64,000 bases of DNA from contig JANJWP010000003.1 of assembly GCA_024709505.1 (NCBI GenBank), forward strand, positions 4,767 through 68,766, written 5' to 3'. The notes under the pieces are model-generated. The model did no database searches. It had not been told where the DNA came from and was given only the letters and a program-made list of their open reading frames with translations. The translations under genes and the position numbers were made by a program. This document shows positions 7,372 through 63,802 of this stretch, piece by piece. Source of the DNA: Candidatus Altimarinota bacterium. GTDB lineage: Bacteria > Patescibacteriota > Gracilibacteria > BD1-5 > UBA2023. How positions within the stretch are numbered: the first letter of the stretch is position 1; the number at the start of each line of letters is the position of its first letter.

Positions 7372-7408
7372 TGGAAAATGAAAAGCGCCCCCGTTTCAGG
7401 GGCGCTTT
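7372..7408 (-). terminator. Intrinsic terminator downstream of CDS 7441..7830
   Basis: On the minus strand: AAAGCGCCCC-TGAAACG-GGGGCGCTTT followed by TCATTTTCC. It starts about 32 nt after the TGA at 7441-7443. Confidence 0.7.
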
Positions 7409-7440
7409 AGGCGGAGCGGGATTTCGTCGTCACCGAGGAA

Positions 7441-7830
7441 TCAGGAATTCCCGGTGAGAAGGTTGCCCGCCACGTTGCGGTTGAGCGTGAGACGGAAGCG
7501 GGTATGCCCCTCGCCCACGACCGTGAGCGTGAGAAGTCCGGAGTCGATGGCGTACCGAACGAAATCGCGCCAGACCGGAAACGTGCGCTCGCTCGGACGG
7601 ACCGCTTCAAGCGAATCGGGATCAGTGTCGGGAAAGTCGCGGATTTCGAATTTCGCATCATCCGAAACCAGATCGCTGACCTTGGAAGGCTTCTCCACCC
7701 CCTCGTGGGAAACCACGAGGAGCAGGTATTTGCGGTCGGAGAGAAGGGCGTTGACGGCCCCAAGGGCGACGCTGCGCAAATCGGCAAGCTGGGACTCGGT
7801 CAGGTTTTTTCGGACCAGGCTTTCGCTCAT
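7441..7830 (-). CDS. Hypothetical protein, 129 aa; apparent stop is UGA
   Basis: ATG at 7828-7830 preceded by AAAGGAA. The ORF ends at TGA 7441-7443. Under strict table 25 the next in-frame stop is TAG at about 6748, across two terminators and another gene (see findings). Confidence 0.6.
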   Translation of the reverse strand: MSESLVRKNLTESQLADLRSVALGAVNALLSDRKYLLLVVSHEGVEKPSKVSDLVSDDAKFEIRDFPDTDPDSLEAVRPSERTFPVWRDFVRYAIDSGLLTLTVVGEGHTRFRLTLNRNVAGNLLTGNS

Positions 7831-7947
7831 GGCAATTCCTTTCGGTTTTGGTTTTGGACTGCGAATTTATATGGAAAAAACATTATTGGTCAAGATGTTC
7901 CGCAAAAGGCCATTCGGAATTTGGGGCGGCACGAGTAGCATGGTGCC

Positions 7948-8538
7948 ATGAACCCCGAATACGTGCGGTCGGAGGGATATCCCCTTTTCTACCAAAAACC
8001 CTATCATTGCGCCATGGCCTGCCTGCAAATGGCGGTATTCCGACGTACCGGCAGGCTTTTTGACCAAGAATGGCTCGGAGCGCGCTTCGGAGTGTCCGTT
8101 CCCTCATCGGAAGCATCGACGTTCCGATATGCCCTGAATTTCCTTCTTCCCGACAGCTTTTTACGAGAAGGGATATCAACCGTCGATTCCACCCAGGCGA
8201 TGAATCGGTTTTTCGACGAATTCAACCTTCCGCTGGAGGCGCGGGCCATACGCCCGTGCGATTCCGAATTCGACCGGCTCGAAGAAAGAGTTTTCGAATG
8301 GATCAACGGTGGGGCGGACGTTTGGACCGAATTCGTCGTTGGCGAAAAAGGCTCGGCGAACGCCTATTCCCACGATTGCCTGGTCGAAAAAATCGACCTT
8401 CGTTCGAAAAGCGTTTCACTGCTCGATCCGGATCCCCGTGGCGAAAACCATAAAAAAATCTCTGTCGAAGAATGGAAAAACCGAATGTCCGGAGAATACG
8501 GAAGACCGACGGGGATCGTCTTGCTTTTTCCAAAATAG
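7948..8538 (+). CDS. Putative papain-like cysteine peptidase (C39-like fold)
   Basis: 196 aa. The spacing of Q..YHCAMACLQMAV (Gln/Cys) and a later YSHDCLVEKID (His/Asp) resembles C39-like peptidases. TAG stop. Function inferred from motifs only. Confidence 0.55.
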   Translation: MNPEYVRSEGYPLFYQKPYHCAMACLQMAVFRRTGRLFDQEWLGARFGVSVPSSEASTFRYALNFLLPDSFLREGISTVDSTQAMNRFFDEFNLPLEARAIRPCDSEFDRLEERVFEWINGGADVWTEFVVGEKGSANAYSHDCLVEKIDLRSKSVSLLDPDPRGENHKKISVEEWKNRMSGEYGRPTGIVLLFPK

Positions 8539-8619
8539 TCACTAAAAACAATGGTGAACGATTCATGTCGCATGCATCGGTTCATTTTTGAAAAACCAAA
8601 ATAAGGGAAGGAGTTCGTC

Positions 8620-10323
8620 ATGAAACGGATTTGGAACGATATCTCGCTCCGCACGAAATTCATGCTGCTGGCCGGCATGCTCATCGTCATCATCATCGGA
8701 CAGGGGACGGTCGGCGGGTTCGCCGTGAAATCCTACTTCGAAAAAACCGAAGCCGGATACGAACAGGGTACCGTGCCAATCCGCATCATCGGTCAAATAC
8801 TTGAGCGGATGTCCGATAACCGCGCGCAAGTGTTCGGCGCCCTCCAACACAACCCGGCACGGGAAGAATCCCGATTTCATGACCATCCGGTTTCCGAGCA
8901 CGTCAGAAGCATCGAGAAAAACGTCGAGCGGATAAACGAGCTCATCGAAGAATACAAAAAGCATCCGGTTTTCCCGGAAGAAGCGGCGCTCCTGAAAGAG
9001 TTCGAAGAAAAGCGTTCGGCATACGCCATGAAGATTTTGCGCGCAAAATCGAACCTGAACGAAGAGCTCTGGATGGAAACGGCCGCACTGCTTCGCGAAA
9101 TCAACCAAAACTACGAAGCCGCCCGGCAGGCCGGGAACGCTCTCTCCAAATTTTTGGAAGGGCGGGCGGAAAAAAGCGTCATCGCCAACCGCGAAGACTA
9201 CGAATTGCGAGTGCTCATGACGATCGTCGGAGTTCTCGGATCGGCCGTTTTCGGAACGGGCATCAGTCTCATCACGATCGTTTCGTTCCGTTCGCGAATC
9301 GGAAAACTCACCGAGATGGTCGCGAACGTCGAGCGATCCAAAGACCTCACCCTTCCGGTGTCGATCAATGGACGGGACGAAATCGCGGGAATCGCGAAGA
9401 GCTTCGAGAGCCTCGTTGCCGCGGTTCGGGAAAGCGTTGGCGAAATAAAGCGCGAAGCGTCGGAAGTAGCCCAAGGGACCGAAGGAATCCGGTCGGCGAC
9501 GAAGGAAATTCAATCTTCCAACGGCTCGCTCTCCGATTCCGTCGCCCAAAGCGCCGCCACGAGCGAAGAACTCTCGGTCAGTATCGCCGAGGTCGGGGCG
9601 GGCGCCCACGCCGTGAGCGAACTCGTCGGCAACGTCACGAGAAAACTCGTCTCGGAAAGTGCTGCCGAAGTACGAAAAGCCGTCGAGGAACTGGGAAACG
9701 CTTCGCATGCGGTACACCGTTCTGACGCTGAAGTGGAAGAACTGTTCCGTGCTTCCGAAAAAATCGGCCGACTGGCCGATTCGATTGGAAATATCGCGCA
9801 ACAAACCAATCTTCTCGCTCTGAATGCCGCCATCGAAGCGGCGCGGGCGGGCGAGGCCGGGCGGGGATTCTCCGTCGTTGCCGACGAAGTCCGGAAGCTT
9901 TCGGAACACACTTCGCAAGCGACGAAAGAATCCATTGCCGCCATTGCCGACATCCAACACCGGATGGGCGCGCTCCGGGAAGTCATGAAAGAGAGCGTCT
10001 CGCAAATAGAATCGGGCGAGACAATCGGAAAAACGGCGGTAAAAACGCTGGCGGAAGCAGAAAAAAGCAGCGGACAGGCGGCTGAACAAGTCGCCGAGAT
10101 GTCGGCGGCAGTAAACGAGCAGGTTCGGGCCGTCGAAGGACTCTCAAATCAGCTCGAACGCATTGCGGCGGCTTCGGAAGAAGCCAGTTCACAGGCGCGC
10201 CTTTCCTCCGAACTGACCGATCGAGTCCATCATGCCACCGCTTCCTTGCGGAATGCGGTAGACAGATTCAAATCGTGACGGACAAAAGCCGACCTCCGGG
10301 ATTTTCCCGGAGGTTTTTTTTAA
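8620..10323 (+). CDS. Methyl-accepting chemotaxis protein
   Basis: SD AAGGAG 7 nt before the ATG. N-terminal TM, a second TM plus HAMP-like region, and the highly conserved signalling hairpin [36 protein letters not shown]. The standard ORF ends at TGA 10276-10278. Table 25 adds 14 codons to TAA 10321-10323, running through the terminator. Confidence 0.9.
10293..10321. terminator. Intrinsic terminator shared by MCP (+) and proB (-)
   Basis: CCTCCGGG-ATTTTC-CCGGAGG followed by an 8-T run and then an A run. Confidence 0.75.
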
Positions 10324-10335
10324 AAAAAGGGCGGG

Positions 10336-13535: not shown

Positions 13536-13561
13536 AAATCCGGGGTATCCCGGATTTTTTT
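13536..13561 (+). terminator. Intrinsic terminator after the HD-domain gene
   Basis: AAATCCGGG-GTAT-CCCGGATTT followed by a T run, immediately after the stop codon. Confidence 0.75.
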
Positions 13562-15650: not shown

Positions 15651-15678
15651 AAAACGGCTCCCGCTTGGAAGCCGTTTT
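15651..15678. terminator. Intrinsic terminator between the M23 gene (+) and pyrE (-)
   Basis: AAAACGGCTCC-CGCTT-GGAAGCCGTTTT (one bulge) flanked by A and T runs. Confidence 0.75.
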
Positions 15679-15702: not shown

Positions 15703-16491
15703 TCAGGAACCCTTGGAATAATCGGCGCCGTAGAGGCGGCGGTAATCCTTCATCGCCTCGATGATTTCGCCGACCGGATCTTCAAGGGACGGGCCCTCGG
15801 GAACCGATTCGAGCCGCGCGAGCAAATCGTCGAAGGTTGCGATGGCATGGACCGGAATCCCGTATTTGGCGCGAGCCTCCTGAACGGCTGAAAAATCGCC
15901 TTCCTTGCCTTTTTCCATGCGGTCGAAGGCAACCACGACCCCGTGGGGAATCCCTCCGGACGCGCGGATGATTTCGATGGCTTCGCCCACGGCCGTTCCG
16001 GCCGTGATGACGTCGTCAACGATGAGCACCCGCTTTTCCGCAAGCTTCGCCCCAACGATGTTTCCGCCTTCGCCGTGGTCCTTGGCTTCCTTTCGGTTGA
16101 AGGCCCACGGCTTGTCGCGACCGAACTTGCGAAACAGCCCGGCGGCGGCATGGGTCGCCAAGGGAATTCCCTTGTAGGCGGGGCCGAAAATGACGTCGAA
16201 GTCGCCGTGGGTTTCGAAATAGCCGCCGAAGCCGAAAGTCGAGTGCGCGGCGGCGGAACGCTCGTCGGGATAGAGGGAAGCGATTTTTTCGGCGTAGAGC
16301 AATCCAAGCTCCCCGGATTCGGAGCCGGTGCAAAAACTGCCGAAGTTGGCGAAATACGGCGAGACCCTTCCGGATTTCAGCGTGAATTCGCCGAACTTGA
16401 GGACGCCCTTGGCCAACATGAAGTCGAGCAGGCGGACGGCGACGGATTGGGGAAGCTCTTGCGGAAAATCCGCACAAACATCCATGACCAT
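15703..16491 (-). CDS. pyrE: Orotate phosphoribosyltransferase; apparent stop is UGA
   Basis: ATG at 16489-16491 preceded by AGGAAA. PRPP-binding loop VLIVDDVITAGTA. C-terminus ...YRRLYGADYSKGS is typical of the family, followed by TGA 15703-15705. Table 25 would add 34 codons through the terminator to TAA 15598-15600. Confidence 0.9.
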   Translation of the reverse strand: MVMDVCADFPQELPQSVAVRLLDFMLAKGVLKFGEFTLKSGRVSPYFANFGSFCTGSESGELGLLYAEKIASLYPDERSAAAHSTFGFGGYFETHGDFDVIFGPAYKGIPLATHAAAGLFRKFGRDKPWAFNRKEAKDHGEGGNIVGAKLAEKRVLIVDDVITAGTAVGEAIEIIRASGGIPHGVVVAFDRMEKGKEGDFSAVQEARAKYGIPVHAIATFDDLLARLESVPEGPSLEDPVGEIIEAMKDYRRLYGADYSKGS

Positions 16492-16511
16492 GACTGTTTC
16501 CTTTCTCCGCT

Positions 16512-17366
16512 TCAAGCGGAACGGGCGTTGCGATAATTGGAACGGTGGAGATTGATTTCGTCGCGGGTCTTCCCCGCTGCGGCCGCCACGTCCTTGGCGT
16601 AGATGATGCCCCGCGAAGAGTTGATCATCATGCCGAAGCCGTCGGAATCCTGTCCGGCCTTGACGGTCGCTTCGACGTCGCCGCCCTGGGCCCCGATTCC
16701 GGGAACTAAGATCGGCATGTCGCCGACGAGTTCGCGAACGCGGGCAAGCTCCGAAGGACGGGTCGCGCCAACCACGAGGGCCATGCGATTCCCCCCATGA
16801 CGAGCGTTGAGTTCGGCCATCCTGCAAGCGACCTGCTCATAGAGCTTGAGGCCGTTATTCAAGACGAGGTCCTGAAAGTCGCCCCCACCGGGATTGCTCG
16901 TGCGGCAAAGCACGATGACGCCCTTGTCCTCGTATTCGAGGAAAGGTTCGAGCGTATCGAGTCCCATGTAGGGATTGACGGTCACCGCGTCGGCGCCGAA
17001 TCGGACGAAGGCCTCTTCGGCGTATTTCTCGGCGGTATTGCCGATATCGCCGCGTTTGGCGTCGAGAATCACGGGCGTTTTATAGTCGCGCTGGATGCGG
17101 GAGATGAGCATCTGCAGTTCTTCTTCCTTTTCGTAGCGGGAAAAGAAGGCCGCGTTCGGTTTGAAGACCGAAGCGTGCCTGGCCGTAGCCGAAACGGCGT
17201 CGAGGCAAAAGTCGGCAATGACGTCACGAATGGCCGGATTGGCGAATTCGCTGCCGCGAGCCTTGGCAATGGAAGCGTAATCGGGATCGAGTCCGACGCA
17301 GAGAAGCGAATTTTTACGTTCCTGCGAGGCGCGGAGTTTCTCAAAAAATGAACGGGGTTTCGTCAT
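16512..17366 (-). CDS. pyrF: Orotidine 5'-phosphate decarboxylase (type 2); apparent stop is UGA
   Basis: 284 aa with LCVGLDP, ILDAKRGDIGNT and VGATRP motifs. Ends at TGA 16512-16514, 20 nt before the out-of-frame pyrE ATG. Confidence 0.9.
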   Translation of the reverse strand: MTKPRSFFEKLRASQERKNSLLCVGLDPDYASIAKARGSEFANPAIRDVIADFCLDAVSATARHASVFKPNAAFFSRYEKEEELQMLISRIQRDYKTPVILDAKRGDIGNTAEKYAEEAFVRFGADAVTVNPYMGLDTLEPFLEYEDKGVIVLCRTSNPGGGDFQDLVLNNGLKLYEQVACRMAELNARHGGNRMALVVGATRPSELARVRELVGDMPILVPGIGAQGGDVEATVKAGQDSDGFGMMINSSRGIIYAKDVAAAAGKTRDEINLHRSNYRNARSA

Positions 17367-17499: not shown

Positions 17500-19464
17500 C
17501 TACCACTTCTCCGATTCGCGCAATTCGTCGCGGAGCTCGGAAATTTTATCGCGGAGCTCGGCGGCGAGTTCGAAGTCGAGGTTCGACGCGGCGACGTCCA
17601 TTTCGAGTTCCAGGCGCTTCAAGACTGCCCGCGGATCACCGGAATAATCGGTTTTTCCTATTTTTTTGCCCTTGAGTCCGATTTCCTTGATGCTCGAAAC
17701 GATAGTTGTCGGCGTTATGCCATGAGTCTCGTTATACGCTTCCTGCACGGCTCGGCGGCGTTCGGTTTCGCCGATGGCCTTTTCCATCGCGGCGGAAATC
17801 TTTTTCGCGTGGGAATACATGACGACCCTTCCGTTAGAATTGCGGGCGGCACGACCGATAATCTGTAAAAGCGAGGAAACCGAGCGGAGAAACCCCACTT
17901 TCTCGGCATCGAGAATGCCGATGAACGAAACTTCGGGCAAGTCGAGCCCTTCGCGAAGGAGGTTCACCCCCACGATGGCTTCGATTTTTCCGGTTCGCAG
18001 GTCACGGAGGATTTCGAGACGTTCGATGGTTTCGATTTCGGAATGGAGATAGCGGACCTTTACGCCATTTCCCGCGAGGTATTCCGCCAATTCCTCCGAC
18101 GATTTCTTCGTCAGCGTCGTAATGAGAGCGCGCTCGCCTCTTGCACGGACCTCTTTCAGATTCCGCATGATCGAATCGGCCATGAATTCCATGCCTTCGA
18201 TCTCGATCTTGGGATCGAGGAGTCCCGTAGGACGGATGATTTGTTCGGCCACGACCGACGAACGCGAAAGTTCGTACTCGGCAGGAGTTGCCGAAACGCA
18301 GACGGTCTGGGCGATCTTTTTCTCGAATTCCTCGAATTTGAGCGGTCGGTTCTCCATCGCGGAAGGAAGCCGAAATCCGAAATCGACGAGATTTTCCTTT
18401 CTCGACCGGTCGCCCGCGTACATTCCTCCGATTTGCGGAATGGTAATGTGCGATTCGTCAACGAAGGTCAAGAAGTCTTCCGGAAAAAAGTCCAAAAGGG
18501 TCGAGGGGGTTTCTCAAAATCCCCTGCGGGAAAGGTACATCGAATAGTTTTCTATTCCGTTAACGTATCCGACCTCGGTGAGCATCTCGATATCGTATTC
18601 GGTTTTCATTTTGAGCCGTTCGGCTTCGACCAAACGGCCGTTCTCACGGAAAAACCGAAGCCGTTCTTCGAGTTCGGCGCGGATTTTCGGAACGATTTCC
18701 GCTACCAGCTCGGGCGAGGTAACGAAATGCTTAGCCGGAAACACCGTAACCGTTTCAACCGCCTCCAAAACGCGGTTGGTAACGGCTTCTTTCCGGACGA
18801 TATTTTCGAGTTCGCCGTCAAAAAACGACAGCGACCAAAACGTTTCCGACGAGGCCGGAAAGATTTCGAGCTGATCTCCCATGACGCGAAACGATCCGGG
18901 GAGGAAATCGGCCGTCGCGCGACGGAATTGGAGCGCCACGAGAGAATCGAGAATCGATTCGACGCGGTAATTTTCGCCGACCGAAAAACGGATCCGTCCC
19001 GAGCCGTAATCCTCCTTCTCGCCGATGCCGTAAATGCACGAAACCGACGCGACGATAATGACGTCTCGCCGGGAAAGGAGGCTTTCGGTGGCCGCATGGC
19101 GGAGACGGTCGATCTCTTCGTTGATGGTCGCTTCTTTTTCGATGTATTGGCCCGTTTTGACCACGAATGCCTCCGGCTGGTAATAATCGTAGTAGGAAAC
19201 GAAATAATGAACGGCATTGTCGGGGAAGAATTCTTTGAATTCCTGGGCCAACTGGGCGGCGAGGGTCTTATTGTGCGCGATGACGAGCGTTGGGCGCTGC
19301 AACCGCGAAATCACGTTCGCCATCGTAAAGGTCTTTCCCGACCCCGTAACACCAAGGAGGGTCTGACAGCGGTTGCCCACGGAAATGGATGCGCAAAGGT
19401 CGTCGATGGCCTTCGGCTGGTCTCCCGTAGGGAAATATTTGGAAGCGAGGCGGAAGGGGTACAT
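17500..19464 (-). CDS. uvrB: Excinuclease ABC subunit B
   Basis: Track ORFs 17500..18495 and 18514..19641 (from ATG 19464) are in frame through TGA 18514. Motifs GVTGSGKT, YSMYLSRRGF[UGA=G]ETPSTLLDFFP, VDESH, and a C-terminal UVR domain. TAG stop. Confidence 0.95.
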
Positions 19465-19625: not shown

Positions 19626-20351
19626 ATGGAAACCGCGACATTTGGGAAACGGGACTTCCTACGCCCGACCCTCGTGCTCATCGAAGAGCACAAAGAAGAC
19701 ATACTTCGGGAATGGCTTGAAAACGGCCAAACCGAACGGGTGACTTCGGCGACGGGCGAAACCGCCGAAGAAATCGGAAGGGATTTCCTTTCCGCCGTCA
19801 TATCCGACATTGGCACGGTTGCTGGAGAAAAATTCCGCATGGTCGGCGCCGACGTTCTCGCCAAATGTTTTCACGATCTCAAACGTTCGGCCGTATTGGT
19901 GCTCGAGGGAATAGGAAGCCTTCGAAGCATTCACCGCGCCTTCGATGAAGGATTGGTCGCCATACTCTCGGCCCATGCGACCGCAACCGAAAACCTCACG
20001 AAAGAATACCGCCGTGCGGTCGATGCCTCGGCGTTGGTTTCGACCACCGACCCGATGGGAGTGATTACCCACGTGAACGAACGGTTCTGCGAAGCTTCGG
20101 GATATTCCCGGGAAGAGCTCATCGGCAAACCCCACAGCATCGTTCGGCATCCGGATGTCCCTTCGTCGATTTTTGCTGAAATGTGGTCCGTCATAAAATC
20201 CAAAAACGTGTGGCGGGGGATTTTGAAAAATCGTAGGAAAGACGGCAGTTCCTACCGCGTGAGCACGACGATTTCCCCCATATTGGGCTTGAACGGCGAA
20301 ATTCGCGAATACGTTTCGATCCGGTGGGAAATCCCCGAAAGCGGAAATTAG
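19626..20351 (+). CDS. PAS-domain sensor protein
   Basis: 241 aa. The C-terminal half (ITHVNERFCEASGYSREELIGKPHSIVRHPD...WRGILKNRRKDGSSY) is a typical PAS fold. TAG stop. Confidence 0.8.
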   Translation: METATFGKRDFLRPTLVLIEEHKEDILREWLENGQTERVTSATGETAEEIGRDFLSAVISDIGTVAGEKFRMVGADVLAKCFHDLKRSAVLVLEGIGSLRSIHRAFDEGLVAILSAHATATENLTKEYRRAVDASALVSTTDPMGVITHVNERFCEASGYSREELIGKPHSIVRHPDVPSSIFAEMWSVIKSKNVWRGILKNRRKDGSSYRVSTTISPILGLNGEIREYVSIRWEIPESGN

Positions 20352-22601: not shown

Positions 22602-22764
22602 AGGGATTGCGCGTGAAAAAACCGAGAAGAATGGTATGCGTTCTGCCGCGTTTTGCAAATTTTTCAGCGGTATGGTAGACTGGGAAAAACCGCTTCAAAT
22701 TCAAAAAAACCGAACCTTGAACCTCCAAGCGCCAGAGAATCACGAATCGACTGCCGAAACGCGA

Positions 22765-23973
22765 ATGCCCATCATGGAAAAGGTCTCGGGGATTTTTTCG
22801 AAACCGGCGTTCGTAAAAAAATCGGGGTTTCGCTTCCCCTCGATAAAAAACGGGGATTCCGGAAAAATACGGCTTTCCCGTAAAGAGAAGATATTCTTCC
22901 TCGACGCGTTCGGTTCGCTCGTAAACGCGGGGATTCCCATTATCCGGTCGCTCCAAATCATCTACTTCCAATCGCAAAACCCCCGTCTCCAAAAGATCGC
23001 GCTCTTTTTAAAAAGAGAGATCGAGGCGGGCGGAAACATCGCGAAAACGGCGTCGGCCATTCCGGAGGTATTTTCGTCTTTCGACGTGGCCATGTTCGAA
23101 ATGGGAGAGGCGACGGGAAAAATCTGAGGAGCGCTCGAAATCGTCACGGAACGCGAAGAGAAGGGATTGGAACTGTCACGGAAAGTTCGTCAAGCCCTCA
23201 TATATCCGGCAGCCATCGCCGTCATCGCGACGGGGATGATCGCGGTCATCATGACCTACGTCGTACCGAAAATCGAAGGCATTTACCGTGAGGCGAACGC
23301 CAATCTCCCAGCCCTCACGACCGCCGTCATCGCGACGAGCCGTTTCCTGCGGGATTACGGCACGGGAGTGCTCGTCGTTTTGTTTTTGGCGGGCACGGGC
23401 TTTCTCGTGGCTCTAAAAAACCCCCTCGTTCGGATGCGTTTCGACGAGGCGGTATTGCGCGTTCCGGTTTTCGGGGGAATCATGCGGAAGAAAATCCTCG
23501 TTTCCTACTGCGAATTCCTCTCCTCGCTCCTTTCAAGCGGCATCGTCATAAACCGGGCGTTGGCAATCGTACGGAACGGGCTCGGAAATCGGTACTACGA
23601 AGCAATGCTCGATTCCATGCTCGAAGACGTAAAAACCGGGCGTCCACTTTCTTCGAGCATGGGGGGCGAATATACGGAACGCAAAATCCGTGGAGAGGCC
23701 ATGGGAGCCGAAGAGGAGCGGGCGTTCAAGAAGAAGATCGAATGTTTTCCCATCGAACTTTCCACCGCGGTAAAAGTCGGCGAACAAACGGGGACGCTCG
23801 CCGGAATGCTCGGAAAATCGGCCAAACGCTACGGACGCGAGATTGACGCGCTCGTAAAAAACCTCTCCAGCATGCTCGAACCCGTCGTCATCGTGGGGGT
23901 CGGAGGCATCGTCGGCACGATCGTGCTCGCCATCATGCTCCCGTTTTTCAACATGGCGAACGTCGTTCGATAG
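22765..23973 (+). CDS. pilC: Type II secretion / type IV pilus platform protein (GspF/PilC family)
   Basis: Track ORFs 22582..23127 (from ATG 22765) and 23167..23973 are in frame through TGA 23125. Two GspF repeats (FEMGEATGKI[G]GAL..., VKVGEQTGTLAGML) and 3 TM segments. TAG stop. Confidence 0.88.
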
Positions 23974-24000: not shown

Positions 24001-25083
24001 TTATTCCCCCTTCCCTGCCGCCTGTTCCAAAAGTTGCGTCTGATCGGCAATCGAAAGCGCTTCGACGATATGGCCAAGTTTCCCCATCATCACGACGGGA
24101 ATGTTCGAAAAATTTTCTCCGATCCGGTGGTCGGTAATGCGGTCCTGCGGAAAATTGTAGGTGCGGATTTTTTCAGCCCGTTCGCCCGTTCCAACCTGCG
24201 AAAGACGATTGGCGCCGAGTTCGTTCGCCCGTTTCTCTTCTTCGATGGCATAGAGGCGGGCCCGAAGGATTTCGAGGGCTTTGGTCTTATTTTGGAGTTG
24301 GGAACGTTCGTCCTGGCATTCCACCGCGAGTCCCGAAGGTTTGTGGAAAACCCGAATGGCCGAAGATGTCTTGTTGACCTTTTGACCTCCGGCTCAGGAA
24401 GCTCGACAGGCCGTGATTTCAATGTCGTCGTCACGGATTTCCACGTCGAGGGCTTCAGCCTCGGGGAGCACGGCCACGGTCACGGTGGAAGTATGGACGC
24501 GCCCCTTCGCCTCGGTTTCGGGAATGCGCTGGACGCGATGGGTTCCGCCTTCGTATTTGAACTTCGAATACGCTCCGGAACCGGAAATTTTCATGATGAT
24601 TTCCTTCAGCCCCCCGACCTCGCTCGCGTTTTCGTCGAGAATTTCGAGGCCAAAACCTTGTTCGCGGGCGAAGTTCATGTAGGCGTTCGCGAGTTCGCGG
24701 GCGAAAAGCGCGGCTTCGTCGCCTCCCGCTCCTGCCCGGACTTCCAAAATGATGTTTTTGTCATCGTTCGGATCCTTGGGAAGGAGTTCGATCTTCAATT
24801 CTTCTTCGAGAACCGGAATCTTTTCTTCGGATTCGGAGAGCTGCTCCTTGGCCATCATGATCATCTCAGGATCTTTTTCGGTTGCGAGAATTTGTTTCGC
24901 CTCCTCTAAGTTGGCCCAAACGGTTCTGTATTGTCCATAGAGTTCAACCGTGCGTTCGAGGGATTTTTTTCGCCGCATGACCTTCTTGAGGCGTCCGGGA
25001 TCGCTAAAAATGGAGGCGTCAGTGGAAAGTTCGTTTTCGATCGAGCGGTACTCGTCAACGATGGCGTCAAGATTGAATTTCAT
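24001..25083 (-). CDS. prfA: Peptide chain release factor 1
   Basis: ATG at 25083. RF1-type tripeptide region [16 protein letters not shown] (PxT, not SPF). GGQ loop RAS[UGA=G][12 protein letters not shown], with the UGA at 24394-24396. TAA stop. Confidence 0.93.
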
Positions 25084-25225: not shown

Positions 25226-25312
25226 GCCCCGATGGCGGAATTGGTAGACGCGAGGGACTCAAAATCCCTTTTCGGCAACGGAGTGCGGGTTCGATTCCCG
25301 CTTGGGGCACCA
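25226..25312 (+). tRNA. tRNA-Leu (anticodon CAA), CCA encoded
   Basis: GCCCCGA/TG/GCG/GAATTGGTAGA/CGC/G/AGGGA/CTCAAAA/TCCCT/long variable arm TTTCGGCAACGGAGT/GCGGG/TTCGATT/CCCGC/TTGGGGC/A/CCA. 87 nt. Confidence 0.92.
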
Positions 25313-25345: not shown

Positions 25346-25436
25346 GGAGAGGTGGCAGAGTGGTCGAATGCGCCAGACTCGAAATCTGGTATACCGGTCT
25401 CCGGTATCGGGGGTTCGAATCCCCCCTTCTCCGCCA
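25346..25436 (+). tRNA. tRNA-Ser (anticodon CGA), CCA encoded
   Basis: GGAGAGG...CCAGA/CTCGAAA/TCTGG/long variable arm/GGGGG/TTCGAAT/CCCCC/CTTCTCC/G/CCA. 91 nt. Confidence 0.92.
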
Positions 25437-35913: not shown

Positions 35914-36206
35914 GCGCAAACGTAAGGAATACCGAGTACGGCGGAACTCCGTCTCATAAGAGGGCGAGCCGCCGATGTGTTTGAGCGATTCTATTCGGAA
36001 ACTGGAACGAGGCAAGGTCTCGGAAGAACGTTTGACAAGGCGGACCGAATTCGTATAACTCGCACATGGATACGAAAACGGTTCAGGCCCTTTCGGACGT
36101 CGGGGCACCATGAAGGAATCCGCGGGTCGCCGAAAACGCCCCCGCGGTTTTCGAACACCGACCCGACATTCCCGCCATACAGGAACGGTTCAAGCAGGTC
36201 GAGGGA

Positions 36207-37526
36207 ATGGTGGCCGCGCTCGTGAATCTCGTGGGACCCCGCTGCGACGAAATCGTGAGCAATGCGCGCGAAAAACCGGAAGACGTTTCCAACGGCACCG
36301 AAAAGGTTCTCCTCGAAACCCGTCGGCTCGCCACGGAAATGCTTGACAATCTCCGGGAGATGGAGCGGATACTGGGGCTTCCCGAAAATTTCGTCTCCGC
36401 GCTCGAAAGAACCCGGAGAAGCGTTTCGGAAAGCATGCGCGGAAGCTCTCCGGAACTCGTTCGTTTCCGCATCATTTCGGAAACGCTCGAACTTTTGCGC
36501 CACCATCTCGGAATGGACTACGCAGGAATTTGGCTTCTAAAAAACGGCCGGGGCGTTTCGCTCCACGAATCCGGAAAACTGCATCCGGATTCTGATTTGA
36601 ACGTTATCGAAGCGCAGGTTCAGGATGCCATCGGAAAGACCGGGGGGGGAAAATTCGCCTACCTCGACCCTTCCGATTCGGAAGATGGCGGAGTCGATGC
36701 GGTTTTCGTGTTCCGCAACATCGAGGGGGATCCCATCGGGTATTTGCTTCTCGACGATTACGAAACCGCCCACGACATCGACACGGCAACCATATCCAAA
36801 GTCGCCGAGACGTACTACGTCCATCTCCATGCGGTCATTCACGAAGAAGAAGCCGCACTCGCACAAAAAGAGCTTTTTGACATCCGGCGGGAGCTCGACC
36901 GGATGCGCGATGAGCTCGAAAGCTCGCGCTTCGACCTCCTTACCGGACTCCTCATCCGCCGGTACGGTACCGAAAAAATTTCCAACCGAATGGAGCAGGT
37001 GATGCATTCGAGGGACGGTGACGGAATCGGTACGCTTTGCATTTTCGACATCGACCGGTTCAAAACCGTGAACGATACGTACGGACACTCGAAGGGGGAC
37101 GAAGTTTTGCATAGGGTCGGAGAAATCCTTGCAAAGGGTTACCGTTCCGATACCGTTTCGGTAACCCCGAGAAAGCTCGACGTCATGTGCCGCTGGTGAG
37201 GCGAAGAGTTCGTTGCCTATCTCGATCAGACCGACGAAGCTGGGGCCGTGATTTTTGCCGAGCGGATATCCAAGGCCGTGCAGGACTTGGAATTCGAGGA
37301 TGTCGAGGGGGTTGATCGGTTCAGGGTCAGCGTGACGATGGGAATCGTCGGATTCACGACGGAAAGCCTGCGGAAACTCCCCTCTGGAACCGACGTTCTC
37401 GAGCACTGCCTTTCACGGGCGGACGGCGCTTTGTACGAAGGGAAGGAAACCGGTCGGAACCGCATCGTCGTATGCAAGGACGGCGGACAATACGAAATCT
37501 TCGAAACGGGAACCCCGAGGAATTAG
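36207..37526 (+). CDS. Diguanylate cyclase (GGDEF domain) with an N-terminal sensory region
   Basis: Track ORFs 36207..37199 and 37248..37526 are in frame through TGA 37197. Active site CRW[UGA=G]GEEF = GGEEF; DIDRFKTVNDTYGH. TAG stop. An in-frame ATG at 36066 (through TGA 36111) is an alternative start. Confidence 0.85.
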
Positions 37527-37855
37527 TCGGAAAAGTTCCGAGGGGAAAGCCGAAAAAAATCCGCCTGCGCAACGGTTCAATCGACCATCTCAATTCCGTC
37601 AGCCCGGAGGCGGCGGATTTTTTCGTGGATGCCGAGATTGTACCCGGAGATCTTTCCGCTCGATGAAACCACCTTGTAACAAGGGAAAATGTCTTGTTCC
37701 GGATTGCTCGAAAGCATCGAGGCCACGCCGCGCGGATAACTGCCGAGAACTCGAGCAAGTTCGCCGTAGGATACGACTTTTCCTTGGGGAATTTCCAAGA
37801 GAAGTTGAAAAAGCCGACGCTTGCGGGTATCTTGGTGGAAAACCGTTTTGCTCAT
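37523..37855 (-). CDS. MGMT/Ogt-family DNA-binding domain protein (PCYKV variant of PCHRV)
   Basis: ATG at 37855. LLLEIPQGKVVSYGELARVLG...FPCYKVVSSSGKISGY. The standard ORF ends at TGA 37577. Table 25 adds 17 codons to TAA 37523-37525, which overlaps the convergent GGDEF TAG by the same 4-nt pattern seen elsewhere. Confidence 0.7.
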
Positions 37856-38615
37856 GCCGACATCGTATCGAAATTCCCCCAAAAATCGAACCGGCCCCCT
37901 TCTTGCCGAACGCGTGCGGGGAATCGAACGTCCGTTCAAAAGCGTTTCGGAAAACCGTTTCCTTGAAATTTTCAACGAAATCGTCGGCTCCAAAAATGCG
38001 CCGTCCCCTGGGGAATCCGCACTTATCGAACGCGCTCGGAAATATGCGAAATTTCTCCGTCACCTTCCAGGAATACGGAGAGTCTGGGTTTGCAATTCCC
38101 TCTCCATGAACGCGGCCGATGCCGACTCTGACATCGATCTTTTTATCGAAACCGCTCCCGGAGGCCTTTGGACCTGAAGGATCTTCGCCACGGCATTTTT
38201 TAGCCTACTCGGAGTCCGGCGACATGGCGATAAAGTTGCAAAACGGTTTTGCCTTTCGTTTTTCGCGGTCGAAAACGCGGATTTAGAAAAGATTGCCCTC
38301 GAAAACGACGCCTATCTCTACGAATGGGCAAGAAGGCTTATTCCAGTGGACGGATTGGACGACGTTCCGAGAGGACGCGGCATTGAAAATTTCCACGGAT
38401 CCGAGGGGGCCTGATGGATTCCCACGACGTTTTTCCTCCGCATGGCCGAACGGGGATGCAAGTTCCTCTTTGAAAAAAAGACGCTCGACGAATACGAGCG
38501 CCTTGGAAGGCCTTGGGGAATCGTTATTTCCGACGAATTTCTCAAGTTCCATCCCGAAGACCGGAGAAGGGAGATTCGCGATGCGGTGGAACGGAAACTT
38601 ACGCTTCCTTTTTAG
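37854..38615 (+). CDS. Nucleotidyltransferase-domain protein; start uncertain
   Basis: One frame through TGA 38175 and 38412 to TAG 38613-38615. ...VWVCNSLSMNAADADSDIDLFIETAPG resembles the GS..x..D.D NTase motif. ATG 37854 overlaps the divergent gene's start. Confidence 0.55.
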
Positions 38616-44300: not shown

Positions 44301-44959
44301 GAGGCGATCTTTTGCTGGAGGATTACGACGTTCACTTCGTCCGGATGGGAAACCACCCCCTCCAAGAGCGAGGAGAGCTCGCGCAGTTCGGAAGCGTTTT
44401 GAACTCCCTTGGCTCCGTCGAAAGTTTCGAGCGCCACAAGCGATCCCCTAACGCGTTCGATTCTCGAAGCGAAAGCCCCGAGGTGCCTGCGGTTGAATTC
44501 GAGGACATCGGGAGACTTTTCAGCGGATTCGGAAGAAGGCTTGCGCGATTTTTCGGAAGCGGATTTTTTCGGAGATTTCCCTTCCGGTTTGGCTGAGGCG
44601 GGGGAAGTTTCCTTTCTCATCCCCTTTTGGGCAGCTGCGGCGTCGGACTGAATTTTCGCGCGTTCGGCCTCCATTTTTTTCCGGTATTCTTCAAAAAGTC
44701 ATTCCCACCGATCACAAAGGGCGAGAATTTCTTTGGAATCGGAATACTCCTTGCGCTGGATCGAAATCCATTCGCGGGCTTTGGAAATTGATTCTTCGGA
44801 AGGACGCCGGAGGGCATTGGGAAAAACCGGTTCCGAAATGGGTGAGCCAGCTTCCGGATAATACGTATCGTTGCTTTTTGAATCGCGAATGGCCCGCTCG
44901 AAATAGTCGATCTGTGTTTCGATGGTGTGCTTATTGGCCGAGGAGAGGAACTCGAACAT
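41366..44959 (-). CDS. Giant hypothetical protein, 1197 aa, 6 sense UGA
   Basis: Track ORFs 41570..41812, 41840..42610, 42932..44674 and 44699..44986 plus connecting stretches share one frame. TGA at 41570, 41840, 42809, 42926, 42932 and 44699. ATG at 44957-44959. TAA stop 41366-41368. Gly/Ala-rich TM-like segments lie near residues 570-700. Confidence 0.7.
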
Positions 44960-44985
44960 ACGAAAAATGTAAGGATATCCCTTCA

Positions 44986-45014
44986 AGGTTACCCTATCTT
45001 TCGTGAACGCGCAA
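44986..45014 (-). promoter_or_regulatory. Promoter with embedded AAGATAGGGTAA motif
   Basis: Minus strand: TTGCGC, 17-nt spacer (gttcacgaAAGATAGGG), TAACCT, 26 nt before ATG 44959. Confidence 0.5.
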
Positions 45015-55120: not shown

Positions 55121-55834
55121 ATGATAGGGTTTTTCGATTCCGGAATCGGAGGACTTACCGTTCTCGCCGAGTTCCGGAAACGCTTTCCGGATTTTGATTA
55201 CGCCTATTTCGGTGATCGGGCCAACTGCCCATACGGCGATCGCGAGGATGAAGAAATCGTCGATTTGACCGAACGCGGAGTCGAGAGGCTTTTTCGCGAG
55301 GGCGCCGAAATCGTCATCCTCGCGTGCAATACGGCCACCGTCCATGCGATACGCTACCTGCAACAAGTCCGGTTTCCCGAAAAAAAGATTTTGGGCGTCA
55401 CCATTCCGGGCGCCGAAAAAATCGTCGAATCGGGATACCGCCACGTCGGAGTGCTCGCGACCGAATGAACCGTGCGGATTCGGGCATATAAAGAACGGGT
55501 CCATATTTTGGACGATTCGGTTTCGGTACACGAAATCGCGGTTCCCGAACTCGTCCCCCTGATCGAACGGGGCATCGTCGGTGGCGAAGAAGTGCGCGAA
55601 ATCCTCGCGGCGAAGACGTCGCAATTCCAAAACATCGAGGCGCTCGTGCTCGGATGCACCCATTATCCCCTCGTTCGAAAAGAAATCGAATCCTTGCTTC
55701 CGGGAATCGAAATCGTCGATCCGGGCGAAGAAGCCGCAAAAAAATTCGCTTCTTACCTAGAGCGACACCCCGAAGTAGAAGCGAAGATCTCAAGAGGCGG
55801 AACCCTTCGGATAAACTATTCCGAACCCACCTAA
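55121..55834 (+). CDS. murI: Glutamate racemase
   Basis: Track ORFs 55121..55468 and 55472..55834 are in frame through TGA 55466. Motifs FFDSGIGGLTV, ILACNTA, VLATE[UGA=G]T, LGCTHYP. TAA stop. Confidence 0.92.
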
Positions 55835-57573
55835 ACGCCCCAGTCCTTGTGATGGTATTCGCGAACCTTGTCGTCAACGTCGGCACGGTCGTACATCCGT
55901 AACAGGTAGTCGAAATCGACGAGGGCGGGAGTTGGGTAATTTCGTCCGTACAGGACGTAGTATTCCGGAGAAAACGCGTCGAGCGTCGAAAACCGGACGC
56001 CTCCGTTCGACGTCGCCATGGGAAGAAGGAATCCGTGCCCGTCAGTCCAATGGGAGTCGATGAACGTTTCTTTTGGGGTTTTTTGCGGTACCGCGGTCGG
56101 TTTCCGAATCGATTTCGGGGTTTTCGGAGGAAAAAACAACCTCGACAATATCGCCTTTTCGGACATTCCGGTCGCCGGAGCCAAAAACAGCCGGATGAAA
56201 AATTTGAGGTTCTTGATATCGAATCCCTTCATTTTTCGGGCCGAAGCCGTCAAAAGCTTTTTAAAGTCGTAATATTCGCCCGTTCGGAAGCCTCCCTCCA
56301 TTCCGCCAACGTACTGGAATTGCAGTTCGATGATTCCGGTCGTCCGAGAGCCGCCCGACTTTCCTCCGCGCATCGCGACCCTTCCGGTCAAATCGCCATT
56401 GGCAATGTCCTCGTCGGTCGAAGCCTTGAGATGGGAAATTTCGGCCACGTGGACTCCGCGGGCCTTCAAATCCTCCAAATCAACCAGATCGCCCTTTTGG
56501 TCGTATTCGCCCTTTTCGAACACGCGATGGGCAAAAAAGTCTATTGCGTTCGCCAGATGGGCCTTATGGGGATTCTCGGTCTCAAACCGGAGTCCGAGCA
56601 AATCCTTCAGCGAATCGACGCTGGTATACTTGCGGTTGAACGCCATCTTCAAAAGGATTTTGAAGAAATTCTTTTCGCGCATGTGGAGCGTGCCCTGAAA
56701 GAATTTTTCGGCGTTTTTTGCTTGGGGTGGAACGTAGGAGCTGAGGAATTTCCCTTCGCCGAGGTCTTTGAGCGTCACTCCGGGTTGCGAGCGGATTTTT
56801 TCAAGCACGAGGGCCGCTTCCTGGTCGAGTTTTTTATAGCGGTCGTTAGATAGAACGTCATGAACGTCGTCCATCGCCCGGATGACGGCGCATTCGATGA
56901 CCATCCCGTATCCGTTTTTTCGATTGCCCGGCTTCAGCGAATCGACGTGCGCGACGAATTCTTCGACCGAAGTAAATTTTCGGTTTAACTGGGTTTCTTT
57001 GGGAGTGATGCCGAGAAGGTCGAGAAAGTCGAGCGCGAGGCGGTAGGTTTTATTGATGGTTTCGACCGCTTCCCTTGAAGGAATCGGAGCCCCCCTTTCG
57101 TTCGTCAAAAGCGAATTGACGACCTTTCGGATTTCTTCGGTCGTCATGCTTTCGCTCGAAAGGAGATCCATTTCGGTCAATTCCGAAAACAACCGCGACT
57201 CTCCGTGCACGGCCTCATAGGAAGAAAAATCGTGGACCCCGCGATTGCGCAATGCCTGCGCGACATCGATTTTCATGCCCTGAGCGACTAGGTCGGCCAC
57301 CGATTTCCCGCCGGTCGTATCAACGAGCGCCGCGGCAACGCGTTCGCGGGTTTTTTCCGAGACGGTCGAAAGAAATGCCTGTGAAAGCCTCGCGAGCGTG
57401 AAGTGGTCCTTTTTCTCGTCATGAAGATGCTTTCCCGAAAAATGCCGCACCGGAACCTGCGGATAAGGACCGCCGATCAAAAAGGATTCGTCCCAATTCT
57501 TAGGGGATTTCGCGACGTTTTTTTGATGCGGAACAGGAGAAAGCGCGGGGACGTGGACTTTTTTTTGGGACAT
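55831..57573 (-). CDS. Large hypothetical protein (580 aa) with a possible RelA/SpoT-like nucleotidyltransferase core
   Basis: Intact ATG-to-TAG ORF. SLKDLLGLRFETEN and TGIIELQFQY resemble the D.xG.R and ExQIRT strands of alarmone-synthetase-type NTases. Motif-level inference only. Confidence 0.6.
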   Translation of the reverse strand: MSQKKVHVPALSPVPHQKNVAKSPKNWDESFLIGGPYPQVPVRHFSGKHLHDEKKDHFTLARLSQAFLSTVSEKTRERVAAALVDTTGGKSVADLVAQGMKIDVAQALRNRGVHDFSSYEAVHGESRLFSELTEMDLLSSESMTTEEIRKVVNSLLTNERGAPIPSREAVETINKTYRLALDFLDLLGITPKETQLNRKFTSVEEFVAHVDSLKPGNRKNGYGMVIECAVIRAMDDVHDVLSNDRYKKLDQEAALVLEKIRSQPGVTLKDLGEGKFLSSYVPPQAKNAEKFFQGTLHMREKNFFKILLKMAFNRKYTSVDSLKDLLGLRFETENPHKAHLANAIDFFAHRVFEKGEYDQKGDLVDLEDLKARGVHVAEISHLKASTDEDIANGDLTGRVAMRGGKSGGSRTTGIIELQFQYVGGMEGGFRTGEYYDFKKLLTASARKMKGFDIKNLKFFIRLFLAPATGMSEKAILSRLFFPPKTPKSIRKPTAVPQKTPKETFIDSHWTDGHGFLLPMATSNGGVRFSTLDAFSPEYYVLYGRNYPTPALVDFDYLLRMYDRADVDDKVREYHHKDWGV

Positions 57574-62277: not shown

Positions 62278-62295
62278 AAATTTTTCGATTCTTCC

Positions 62296-62871
62296 ATGCT
62301 CTCAAAAATCGGGGAAATCCTCAAAAGAGTGGAGGAGCTAAAAATCCAGCTCCAATCAGAATACGTAGCGCTCATGGAGCGCTACGACTACGCCATTGAA
62401 AACCGGAAGATCGTTTTTTCCGAAAAAGCCAAAAAAATCCAAAGGGGCGCTCGCGAAGGAGCGTTCCATTATCTGCTTTCCTCGGAAATCCGGCACGTCC
62501 TCTCGATTCCGTTCATCTACGCGATGGTCGTTCCGGCAATCGTGCTCGACGTTTTTCTGACCATGTTCCAGTATACGGCCTTTCCCCTTTATGGGATCGA
62601 ACGGGTCAAAAGAAGCGATCATATCCTTTTTGACCGAAAATACCTCGGATACCTCAACTGGATACAAAAACTCAATTGCCTCTATTGTTCTTACGTCAAC
62701 GGGCTTTTTTCTTACGCGACCGAAATCGGAGGGCGGACCGAAAAATACTGGTGTCCCATCAAATACGCGCGACGACTCGAACAGACCCATCGCCACTATC
62801 CGGAATTCGCCGATTTTTGAGATGCCGAAGGATTCACCGAACTATACGCCTCCAAAGGAAAAACGAAATAA
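62296..62871 (+). CDS. Hypothetical membrane protein, 191 aa
   Basis: Track ORF 62296..62820 continues through TGA 62818 (…YPEFADF[G]DAEGF…) for 16 codons to TAA 62869-62871. Two TM segments and a Cys-rich LNCLYCSY...WCPIKYA region. Confidence 0.6.
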
Positions 62872-62950
62872 TCCGATTTGTTAAAATCGATCTTTGGGAT
62901 ATCTTCGCGCGGACGGCATGTGCCGTCGCTACGCCATGGGAGGCACTCGA

Positions 62951-63427
62951 ATGAAAACGAGCGTGTTTTTCCACCGGGCCGGCCCGCTTGAAGCCGGACT
63001 CCACCATGCGTCCATCGAAAGGCTGTTCGCGGATGTCCGCCCGCTTCCGAACGGAAACGGCCACGCGTCCATCCTGGCGGTTGACGCATTCGGCCAACTC
63101 GTCGGGGCTTCGGAGATGTCATTTTCGAAAGGGAGTGCGCACGTGCGTTTCGCCGCGTGTCCGCTCTACCAAGATTCCGACGTCGAAGAATCGCTTTTGG
63201 CCCGTTCGATGCTCGCGGCCCGAAATCTGGGTGCCGCGAAAATCGCCTTCGATCTCCAAAAGGAAGACGAGTCCCGGGCGCTCTTGGCCCGGAGTAACGG
63301 AATGAGCATCAATCGCTCAGGGGAAACGTGGGTGGCGGAAGCCTACCTGCCCTATGCCGACCCGTGCAGTTTTGCCATCGAATGCGCGCTGTCATGGTTC
63401 GTCCCCGTTCCGGCAGAATGTCGGTGA
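62951..63427 (+). CDS. Putative GNAT-family acetyltransferase; apparent stop is UGA
   Basis: GGGAGG 7 nt before ATG 62951. 158 aa with a GNAT-like core (ILAVDAFGQLVGAS...EESLLARSMLAARNLGAAKI). Ends at TGA 63425-63427, followed by a terminator. Confidence 0.6.
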   Translation: MKTSVFFHRAGPLEAGLHHASIERLFADVRPLPNGNGHASILAVDAFGQLVGASEMSFSKGSAHVRFAACPLYQDSDVEESLLARSMLAARNLGAAKIAFDLQKEDESRALLARSNGMSINRSGETWVAEAYLPYADPCSFAIECALSWFVPVPAECR

Positions 63428-63447
63428 CGGAACGAAGCGTCAAAATC

Positions 63448-63473
63448 CGCCCCCTTCATGAGGGCGTTTTTTT
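63448..63473 (+). terminator. Intrinsic terminator after the GNAT-like gene
   Basis: CGCCC(C)-loop-GAGGGCG hairpin followed by TTTTTTT, starting about 20 nt after the TGA. Confidence 0.65.
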
Positions 63474-63497
63474 ATTCCCGAAGCGCTAAACGCATTA

Positions 63498-63525
63498 TTG
63501 ACAATGTAGGAAAAGTTGATACTAT
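63498..63525 (+). promoter_or_regulatory. Consensus promoter for the lipoprotein gene
   Basis: TTGACA (63498-63503), 16-nt spacer, TACTAT (63520-63525). AAGGAGG follows at 63551-63557. Confidence 0.55.
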
Positions 63526-63562
63526 CAATCCGTCTCAACCGCTTTTAGAAAAGGAGGAAGCC

Positions 63563-63802
63563 ATGGGACGCCTATCCCTAACCGCGTTGGTATTAGCCGT
63601 GGTACTCGGCGGTTGCGCGAACGTGGAACCGAAAAATTCGTCGGGATACGACGGCGAACGCACGGGACCCCTTACCAACTATTCGACCTACCCGGCACCG
63701 ACCAAACCGCCCTATCGCGACACCTACGTCGTCCAAACCAAGGGCAAGGGCGCCAAAGTCGTCGTGGACGAACGTTACGAGCCGAGGCCCGCGAAGCGGT
63801 AA
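63563..63802 (+). CDS. Small lipoprotein, 79 aa
   Basis: AAGGAGG 5 nt before ATG 63563. MGRLSLTALVLAVVLGG|C has a lipobox (L-G-G-C). TAA stop. Confidence 0.75.
   Translation: MGRLSLTALVLAVVLGGCANVEPKNSSGYDGERTGPLTNYSTYPAPTKPPYRDTYVVQTKGKGAKVVVDERYEPRPAKR

Follow-up and report, generated by a model that had tools for sequence, protein, structure and literature searches.

UGA probably serves as both glycine codon and stop codon in a GC-rich clade of recoded Gracilibacteria

Introduction

As judged from comparative sequence analysis of a lineage of Gracilibacteria, the codon UGA is probably read in two ways by the same bacterial cell: as glycine within most genes, and as stop where genes of a separate accessory class end. 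The starting point was a stretch of 64,000 nucleotides (nt) from Candidatus Altimarinota bacterium (contig JANJWP010000003.1 of assembly GCA_024709505.1, positions 4,767 to 68,766), called the window below. It was compared with loci from related genomes, which carry L-numbers (L001, L094 and so on). Bacteria that use translation table 25 have been described as having UAA and UAG as their only stop codons and as lacking release factor 2 (RF2), with a reported range of G+C (GC) content of 0.21-0.53. Bacterial stop codon reassignments are treated as clean switches, in which RF2 is lost, UGA becomes sense and only UAA and UAG terminate. An earlier reading of the window from its sequence alone (the original prediction) had proposed that six of its genes nevertheless end at UGA. 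In this study, we compared these ends with those of orthologues and surveyed gene ends across the related genomes.

Results

Reading of UGA as glycine

The obvious genes of the window fall into same-frame pieces if TGA is a stop codon and become whole again if only TAA and TAG are stops. With TGA as sense, the longest open reading frame (ORF) has 1,726 codons and contains six in-frame TGAs. Genes were called with a self-trained codon model, which replaced a frame plot of GC content at third codon positions whose signal was too weak; about 55 genes were found, covering about 90% of the window. Two sites illustrate the meaning of the internal TGAs.

18514-18516, minus strand: sense TGA at a conserved glycine of UvrB; 59 relatives have glycine and 18 have TGA at this site
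24394-24396, minus strand: sense TGA for the first glycine of the SGAGGQ catalytic motif of release factor 1 (RF1; gene 24001-25083); relatives have GGC

TGAs in the genes for RF1, an M23 peptidase, an amino-acid kinase, KsgA, PilC, RecA, DnaJ (three sites) and MurC likewise stand opposite mostly or wholly glycine, and one lies within the EGFGLP motif of a GT4 glycosyltransferase. Among 144 pairs with orthologues from the closest clade, the opposite codon was GGN in 100 (GGA 40, GGC 39, GGG 15, GGT 6) and TGA in 24. These comparisons confirmed the predicted reading of UGA as glycine in this genome. Several sense TGAs are unique to the window's lineage and are therefore recent gains, including that in the SGAGGQ motif, where close relatives have GGC. 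Since RF1 is encoded by the only release-factor gene of the window, and its catalytic motif contains a sense TGA, production of RF1 needs UGA to be decoded as glycine. Selenocysteine was not supported: the sense UGAs are opposite glycine and not cysteine or selenocysteine, and no Rfam SECIS match in the window passed the gathering threshold.

The ratio of TGA to GGA was 0.11 in the clade of the window (the high-GC clade below), 0.21 in its sister group, 0.34 in mid-GC relatives and 3.7 in low-GC relatives. Sense-TGA usage was thus the lowest in the high-GC clade among the relatives sampled, which fits a cost of ambiguity. Two further genes of the window have a TGA before their TAA or TAG stop (62296-62871, TGA at 62818, 16 codons before; 3773-4585, TGA at 4448, 44 codons before). 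In both, the coding score is still positive past the TGA, and table-11 gene callers stop the former at its TGA (L081-L083).

Genes that end at TGA

The six TGAs of the original prediction were found where it had placed them. All six genes are free of internal TGAs, and the bases found at +4, directly after the six TGAs, are T, C, A, A, A and C. Its table-25 extensions of 230, 14, 34, 305 and 17 codons were reproduced, while the sixth is 124 codons instead of about 125. Four of the genes, together with the hairpins that follow them, are as follows.

7441..7830, minus strand: hyp7441, hypothetical protein of 129 amino acids (aa), TGA end 7441-7443, no Pfam match
7382..7408, minus strand: intrinsic terminator 33 nt past the hyp7441 TGA, 12-pair stem and T-run, -19.7 kcal/mol
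8620..10278, plus strand: methyl-accepting chemotaxis protein (MCP), 552 aa, TGA end 10276-10278, Pfam 4HB_MCP_1, HAMP and MCPsignal
10291..10315, plus strand: intrinsic terminator 12 nt past the MCP TGA, 11-pair stem and T8
16512..17366, minus strand: pyrF, OMP decarboxylase (OMPDC), 284 aa, TGA end 16512-16514, Pfam OMPdecase at residues 21-265
15703..16491, minus strand: pyrE, orotate phosphoribosyltransferase (OPRT), TGA end 15703-15705, aligned with Escherichia coli OPRT up to residue 208 of 213
15651..15678, minus strand: intrinsic terminator 24-26 nt past the pyrE TGA, 12-pair stem and T-run

The terminators that had been described past hyp7441, MCP and pyrE are the three strongest terminator-like sites between positions 6500 and 17500.

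The orthologues of the MCP gene in L001, L002, L091 and L093 (43-46% identity to that of the window) all end in RF[KR][ST] followed by TGA and then by a strong terminator. The C-terminus is the family-typical RFK[ST], and the sequence past the TGA has no protein similarity among the orthologues. An orthologue of hyp7441 in L094 (70% identity) also ends at TGA before a terminator; a homologue in L095 (46% identity) has TAA at the same alignment position, again followed by a terminator. All eight pyrE orthologues, down to 40% identity, end at TGA and then have a terminator. Past the conserved YGADYS, their C-termini carry 0-7 extra residues, and L001 has TGATGA. In pyrF, the alignment with solved OMP decarboxylases reaches residue 275 of 284, and the ends of the orthologues are six TGA and two TAA. 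A Shine-Dalgarno site and the pyrE start lie 20 nt past the pyrF TGA of the window. Relative to pyrF, this start is out of frame in the window, whereas L001, L091 and L094 have it in frame and L092 has an ATGA stop-start overlap. The frame of pyrE relative to pyrF thus varies between close relatives, and the downstream frame is therefore unconstrained. In the window, strict table 25 would add 305 out-of-frame codons to pyrF and 34 codons to pyrE.

The nearest relatives of pyrF outside the clade are from Betaproteobacteria (Burkholderia, Azoarcus, Thauera and Aromatoleum; 55-59% identity), which are GC-rich organisms with the standard code, and the pyrE product very closely resembles E. coli OPRT in its core. 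These affinities point to the acquisition of pyrimidine-synthesis genes by a Patescibacteria lineage. The pyrF-TGA-pyrE arrangement spans 15703-17366 (minus strand) in the window, 4184-5755 in L001, 9089-10747 in L091 and 200-1867 in L094. Read-through in the latter three would give an OMPDC-OPRT fusion. The best solved-structure match of pyrF is the fused OMPDC-OPRT enzyme of Leishmania, which has the same domain order.

The remaining two genes of the original prediction did not fare as well.

37523..37855, minus strand: Ogt/ATL-like gene (DNA_binding_1), true stop TAA 37523-37525 by orthologue alignment
62951..63427, plus strand: orphan ORF, 158 aa, putative TGA end 63425-63427, modest coding score
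63448-63466, plus strand: weak terminator past the orphan ORF, 5-pair stem
63498-63525, plus strand: TTGACA-N16-TACTAT promoter

The TGA at 37577-37579 had been taken as the end of the Ogt-like gene. We rejected it as a stop, since the orthologues in L085, L087 and L088 have GGC, GGG or GGA there, and the 13-17 residues that follow (17 in the window) are conserved as G[KT]VA..[FY]R[FL].. up to TAG or TAA. In CAZINU01, the Ogt-like gene (L089, 6313-6711) has TGA at the same glycine position as the window; its usual stop has been lost, which adds 33 residues. The orphan ORF had been labeled GNAT-like. This label was dropped, because the ORF has no Pfam match and a search among 5.8 billion proteins found only the ORF itself. 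The promoter described past it is present, while the terminator described there is weak, with only five pairs (63452-63464). This hairpin and the modest coding score are all that favour the ORF.

Conservation of the terminal TGA

The proposed subset of genes ending at UGA is thus supported for hyp7441, MCP, pyrE and pyrF. Across five TGA-ended families (pyrE, 8 of 8 TGA; MCP, 5 of 5; a small membrane protein, 5 of 5; pyrF, 6 TGA and 2 TAA; hyp7441, 2 TGA and TAA in the distant homologue), the terminal codons are 26 TGA, 3 TAA, no TAG and no sense codon. By comparison, none of 119 core-gene ends is TGA (Fisher p = 6e-26), although TAA and TAG switch in about 40-50% of core orthologue pairs. TGA is therefore not an equivalent stop for all genes.

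The genes in question are old residents of the clade and are functional. For pyrF, pyrE and MCP, the pairwise ratio of nonsynonymous to synonymous divergence (dN/dS) is 0.10-0.39 at a synonymous divergence (dS) of 0.85-2.3 (MCP alone, dN/dS 0.10-0.29 and dS 0.85-2.3), which shows purifying selection. Core genes of the same genomes have dS of 1.05-1.9 (0.2-0.9 in the closest trio). The gene order uvrB-pyrF-pyrE-M23 ... lysS ... MCP is conserved in the clade; with dS values of the same depth as in core genes, it indicates that the genes have been inherited vertically ever since the clade arose. At such dS a neutral triplet would seldom survive, so the terminal TGA is not neutral. The sequence past it is not conserved as protein, and nearby back-up stops are not in excess. 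Conserved extensions in orthologues, which had been named as one observation that would speak against termination, were seen for the Ogt-like gene and for none of the MCP, pyrE and pyrF tails. From these comparisons, the terminal TGA is shown to evolve as a stop codon that is guarded against sense change and free to become TAA.

The TGA-ended genes are accessory. L031, L002 and the uvrB locus of L004 lack pyrF and pyrE, which the L004 genome carries elsewhere (L090); L031 also lacks MCP. The other TGA-ended genes mostly encode small membrane or hypothetical proteins. The lack of internal TGAs seen in the six genes extends to all 31 TGA-terminated genes of the clade (about 7,500 codons), in which none was found and about 19 were expected at the clade average; with each family counted once (about 3,550 codons), none was found and about 9 were expected. 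About half of the ordinary genes are also free of TGA, so the distribution is uneven, and by a hand calculation the chance that all 17 families are TGA-free is about 0.52^17, or about 1.5e-5. Sense and stop copies of TGA are not mixed within the same genes (0 of 31). Two gene classes, TGA-stop and TGA-sense, therefore exist.

Survey of terminator-adjacent gene ends

We searched for strict terminators, consisting of a hairpin and a T-run, and recorded the stop-like codon that ends the upstream coding frame. The strict stem rule replaced a first terminator finder that was far too permissive. A loose terminator pattern showed no enrichment over shuffled sequence (20 found, 19.3 expected), and only the strongest hairpins are informative. 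TAA/TAG ends with a sense TGA just upstream were scored in the high-GC clade only.

High-GC clade (window and 14 loci; about 330 kb, GC 53-59%): TAA/TAG 72; TAA/TAG with a sense TGA just upstream 4; TGA only 31
Mid-GC table-25 relatives (about 123,000 codons): TAA/TAG 97; TGA only 1
Low-GC table-25 relatives (about 86,000 codons): TAA/TAG 33; TGA only 1

The share of TGA-only ends was 31 of 107 (about 30%) in the high-GC clade and 1 of 98 in the mid-GC sister clades (31 versus 72 and 1 versus 97 against TAA/TAG, Fisher p = 1.6e-9); the single low-GC case is at about chance level. The terminal-TGA pattern is thus specific to the high-GC clade. The distance to the hairpin is 3-57 nt for TGA ends and similar for TAA/TAG ends (median about 17 nt). 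Most terminal TGAs lie at this distance from a terminator hairpin; that of pyrF is followed by pyrE in the same operon. In L090 (CAZINU010000001.1, 33-54 kb), a region with genes for NAD synthase, NAD kinase, NUDIX/NrtR, pyrF and pyrE, five of six terminator-adjacent gene ends are TGA-only; the region may be an island of imported standard-code genes.

A scan of UvrB in species-representative genomes placed the host among metagenome-assembled genomes (MAGs) labeled Patescibacteria, Gracilibacteria or Peribacteria, the closest at about 90% identity. In a neighbour-joining tree of this one gene, without support values, the high-GC clade is nested in TGA-recoded Gracilibacteria MAGs, with the mid-GC genomes as its sister and the table-11 lineages outside. 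Given this position within the recoded radiation, the terminal-TGA trait is probably derived and no relic of the original code change. An ancestral ambiguous intermediate was rejected on the same ground.

Sequence context of the two kinds of TGA

The original prediction had contrasted the frequent G after sense UGAs with its absence after the six terminal ones. G follows 54% of sense TGAs in the high-GC clade and 3 of 32 terminal TGAs. However, the contrast is not diagnostic, and the +4 base was rejected as a discriminator. G also follows sense TGAs more often than GGN codons in the mid-GC sister clade, which lacks the pattern of terminal TGAs (44% versus 34%, p = 5e-10; high-GC clade, 54% versus 36%, p = 0.007), and the share of G after terminal TGAs is not significantly different from that after TAA/TAG stops (3 of 32 versus 42 of 179, p = 0.10). 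The difference between sense and terminal TGAs is thus mostly that between coding and non-coding sequence, and a G at +4 seems to be the preferred context wherever UGA is decoded as glycine. The bases that precede sense TGAs also differ from those before GGN in both clades.

Other features of the window

The window has a GC content of 54.4%. Its products include EF-G, LysRS, UvrB, RF1, RecA, DnaJ, GroEL/ES, SecDF, MurI, MurD, MurC and KsgA, as well as a PilC homologue, pilin-like proteins, an M23 peptidase, a GT4 glycosyltransferase, a GGDEF protein and a PAS protein. Together with the MCP (8620-10278), the PAS-domain protein (19668-20351) and the GGDEF diguanylate cyclase (36126-37526) form an unusual sensory repertoire for a reduced genome of the Patescibacteria type. 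Pilin-like genes whose products carry N-terminal methylation motifs are clustered at 976-4585, and a PilC/T2SSF gene lies at 22672-23973; nowhere else in the window are sense TGAs as dense as in the pilin-like genes. Four very large proteins (530-1,570 aa) are encoded at 25924-30627 (plus strand), 38599-41253, 41366-44992 and 55831-57420 (all minus strand). The genes of the three largest contain 2-6 sense TGAs apiece, and orthologues of the large proteins evolve fast in the clade. The protein at 55831-57420, the one of the four that was scanned, had no match in Pfam. Palindromic hairpins with A-runs and T-runs on their flanks lie between convergent genes at 6845-6874 and 13537-13556 and can serve as terminators for both strands. 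Neither a rescue factor nor a tRNA-Gly(UCA) is encoded in the window. Three transfer RNAs (tRNAs) were found, of which the latter two are followed by their own terminator.

1-55, minus strand: partial tRNA with CAU anticodon, at the window edge
25226-25312, plus strand: tRNA-Leu(CAA)
25346-25436, plus strand: tRNA-Ser(CGA)

Discussion

We identified a class of accessory genes whose terminal TGA is conserved in a clade that otherwise uses this codon for glycine. In our judgement the odds lean slightly (probability about 0.55) toward UGA truly terminating this class by some release activity, which would give the codon a dual meaning. Within most genes UGA would be glycine, presumably through tRNA-Gly(UCA), and at the end of the accessory genes it would be a translation stop. 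The TGA-stop class, which includes pyrF, pyrE, the chemoreceptor and small membrane or hypothetical proteins, would mostly have been imported horizontally from standard-code, GC-rich donors. We infer that ribosomes are released at the terminal UGAs. The likeliest route would be competition between a UGA-reading tRNA and a UGA-recognising release activity. The latter could be an RF2, whether kept throughout or reacquired by transfer, or a different factor for release or rescue. Local context would tip the outcome, as would selection acting on the use that each gene can afford. UGA would be efficient enough as glycine for housekeeping genes with few UGAs, and as stop for imported genes to work, while the cost in both roles would be high enough that highly expressed genes avoid it. 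A more extended proposal, on which we regard the chances as evenly balanced, is that this free-living or episymbiotic lineage has a truly ambiguous code, with UGA as glycine in housekeeping genes and as a working stop in a large imported class that makes up perhaps 20-30% of transcription-unit ends. Such a code would have arisen secondarily inside a recoded clade, possibly by regaining a UGA release activity, and may ease the uptake of standard-code genes from hosts or neighbours.

Several observations weigh against termination at UGA. No sequence context clearly separates sense from terminal TGAs. A tblastn search with E. coli RF2 in the window and the first 80 loci (about 1.3 Mb, at most about 5% of any genome) found only RF1, and prfB has been reported absent from BD1-5 genomes (PMC6851277). 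The decoding motifs of RF1 are identical to those of relatives without terminal TGAs; altered RF1 specificity was rejected because the PxT region and neighbouring motifs are the same in these relatives. Sense TGAs are still being gained in the lineage of the window (RF1, KsgA and M23), which is hard to square with a strong competing release factor, and core genes never end at TGA while their TAA and TAG interchange freely. The latter two points contradict a fully equivalent third stop codon, and the lineage-specific gains disfavour an ongoing reversion to table 11.

It is also conceivable, though considerably less probable, that UGA always means glycine and that the imported genes simply kept their old stops. 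Ribosomes would then run on to the next UAA or UAG or to the 3' end of the mRNA at the terminator, and short junk tails or non-stop rescue (tmRNA, ArfB) would be tolerated. The accessory and patchy nature of the TGA-ended genes (the absences of pyrFE and MCP), the betaproteobacterial affinity of pyrF and the E. coli-like pyrE all agree with this view. So do the absence of TGA from core-gene ends, the reported lack of prfB, the continuing gain of sense TGAs and the short tails implied by a terminator 3-57 nt after most terminal TGAs. However, if the TGA were just a tolerated glycine codon with a junk tail behind it, it should have decayed once dS exceeded 1, and the 26 TGA, 3 TAA and 0 sense codons that were observed do not show this decay. 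The neutral junk tails offered in the original prediction are disfavoured by this conservation. Internal TGAs should also have built up in these genes as elsewhere, but none was seen where about 19 were expected. Read-through would moreover burden pyrF, a gene under purifying selection, with a 305-codon out-of-frame tail, and it leaves the near absence of such ends in the sister table-25 clades unaccounted for.

A further possibility, which we consider improbable, is that two decoding regimes alternate by gene class or in time, for example through a regulated UGA-reading tRNA or release factor, as has been proposed for recoded phages with separate codes in early and late genes. The clean split between the gene classes, with no sense TGA in TGA-stop genes, would follow from such regulation, as would the absence of a local context that separates the two uses; about half of the core genes contain no TGA and could be translated under either code. 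On the other hand, RF1, UvrB, RecA and DnaJ carry sense TGAs, so the glycine state would need to be essentially constitutive. TGA-stop and TGA-sense genes are interspersed and at times immediate neighbours, and no regulator was seen. That the pattern is an artefact, produced by errors from TAA or TAG to TGA or by chimeric contigs of standard-code and table-25 organisms, has a negligible likelihood. The sequences are metagenome-assembled and single-base errors occur, but the same TGA ends and gene order, flanked by sense-TGA genes, recur in more than 10 independent assemblies of different projects (JASDUA01, JBAQKV01, JAUPLX01, CAZINU01, CAYMAL01 and several Logan runs). This recurrence effectively refutes errors and chimeras and excludes the assembly errors listed among the original candidate explanations.

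If UGA does terminate the accessory genes, the clade would be the first case in bacteria of an ambiguous code such as those of ciliates and would make the ambiguous intermediate model testable in living organisms. It would also show how a recoded organism still imports standard-code genes, a kind of transfer that recoding is commonly expected to hinder. Gene calling in this clade makes systematic errors with either table: core genes are split under table 11, and under table 25 accessory genes become fused or extended, as when pyrF is joined to pyrE. Programs for genetic-code prediction may misclassify these genomes. Within the literature searched, we found no description of UGA as both sense and stop in table-25 bacteria or in any bacterial genome-wide code; context-dependent stop/sense codes were found for eukaryotes only.

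The closest known system is code 25 itself, as described for Gracilibacteria/BD1-5 and Absconditabacteria (GTDB class JAEDAM01). The high-GC clade shares with it the UGA at conserved glycines, the interchange of TGA with GGN and the presence of RF1. It differs in that about 30% of terminator-adjacent gene ends are UGA-only and conserved as such, in a GC content of 54-59%, which reaches or exceeds the upper limit reported, and in a use of sense UGA that is the lowest among the sampled relatives. Selenocysteine insertion also gives UGA a dual meaning in bacteria, often with a downstream hairpin. The hairpins found here are intrinsic terminators with T-runs, however, and they follow the terminating UGAs rather than the decoded ones. 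Some bacteriophages with recoded stop codons have early genes that are code-compatible and late genes that are recoded, and encode suppressor tRNAs. They resemble the present case in that gene classes of one genome differ in stop codon use, but they switch during a life cycle, whereas here the genome is cellular and housekeeping genes bear the recoded codon. Recoded lineages that keep prfB, namely some assemblies of Ca. Stammera capleta and the hypothetical ancestors termed ambiguous intermediates, resemble it in that UGA is, or is supposed to be, both decoded and used for release in one lineage. The prfB-bearing Stammera genomes have been interpreted as table 11, and none has been shown to use both meanings at once. 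The ambiguous nuclear codes of ciliates and trypanosomatids (Condylostoma, Parduczia, karyorelicts and Blastocrithidia; PMC4967479; bioRxiv 10.1101/2022.04.12.488043; PMC12153298) are alike in that one codon is both amino acid and terminator in one genome, with most terminating copies near the 3' end of the transcript. These organisms are eukaryotes, in which proximity to the poly(A) tail and the poly(A)-binding protein is thought to favour eRF1. In the high-GC clade, pyrF has its UGA within an operon, away from a 3' end, and the two uses of the codon are divided between gene classes instead of being mixed within genes.

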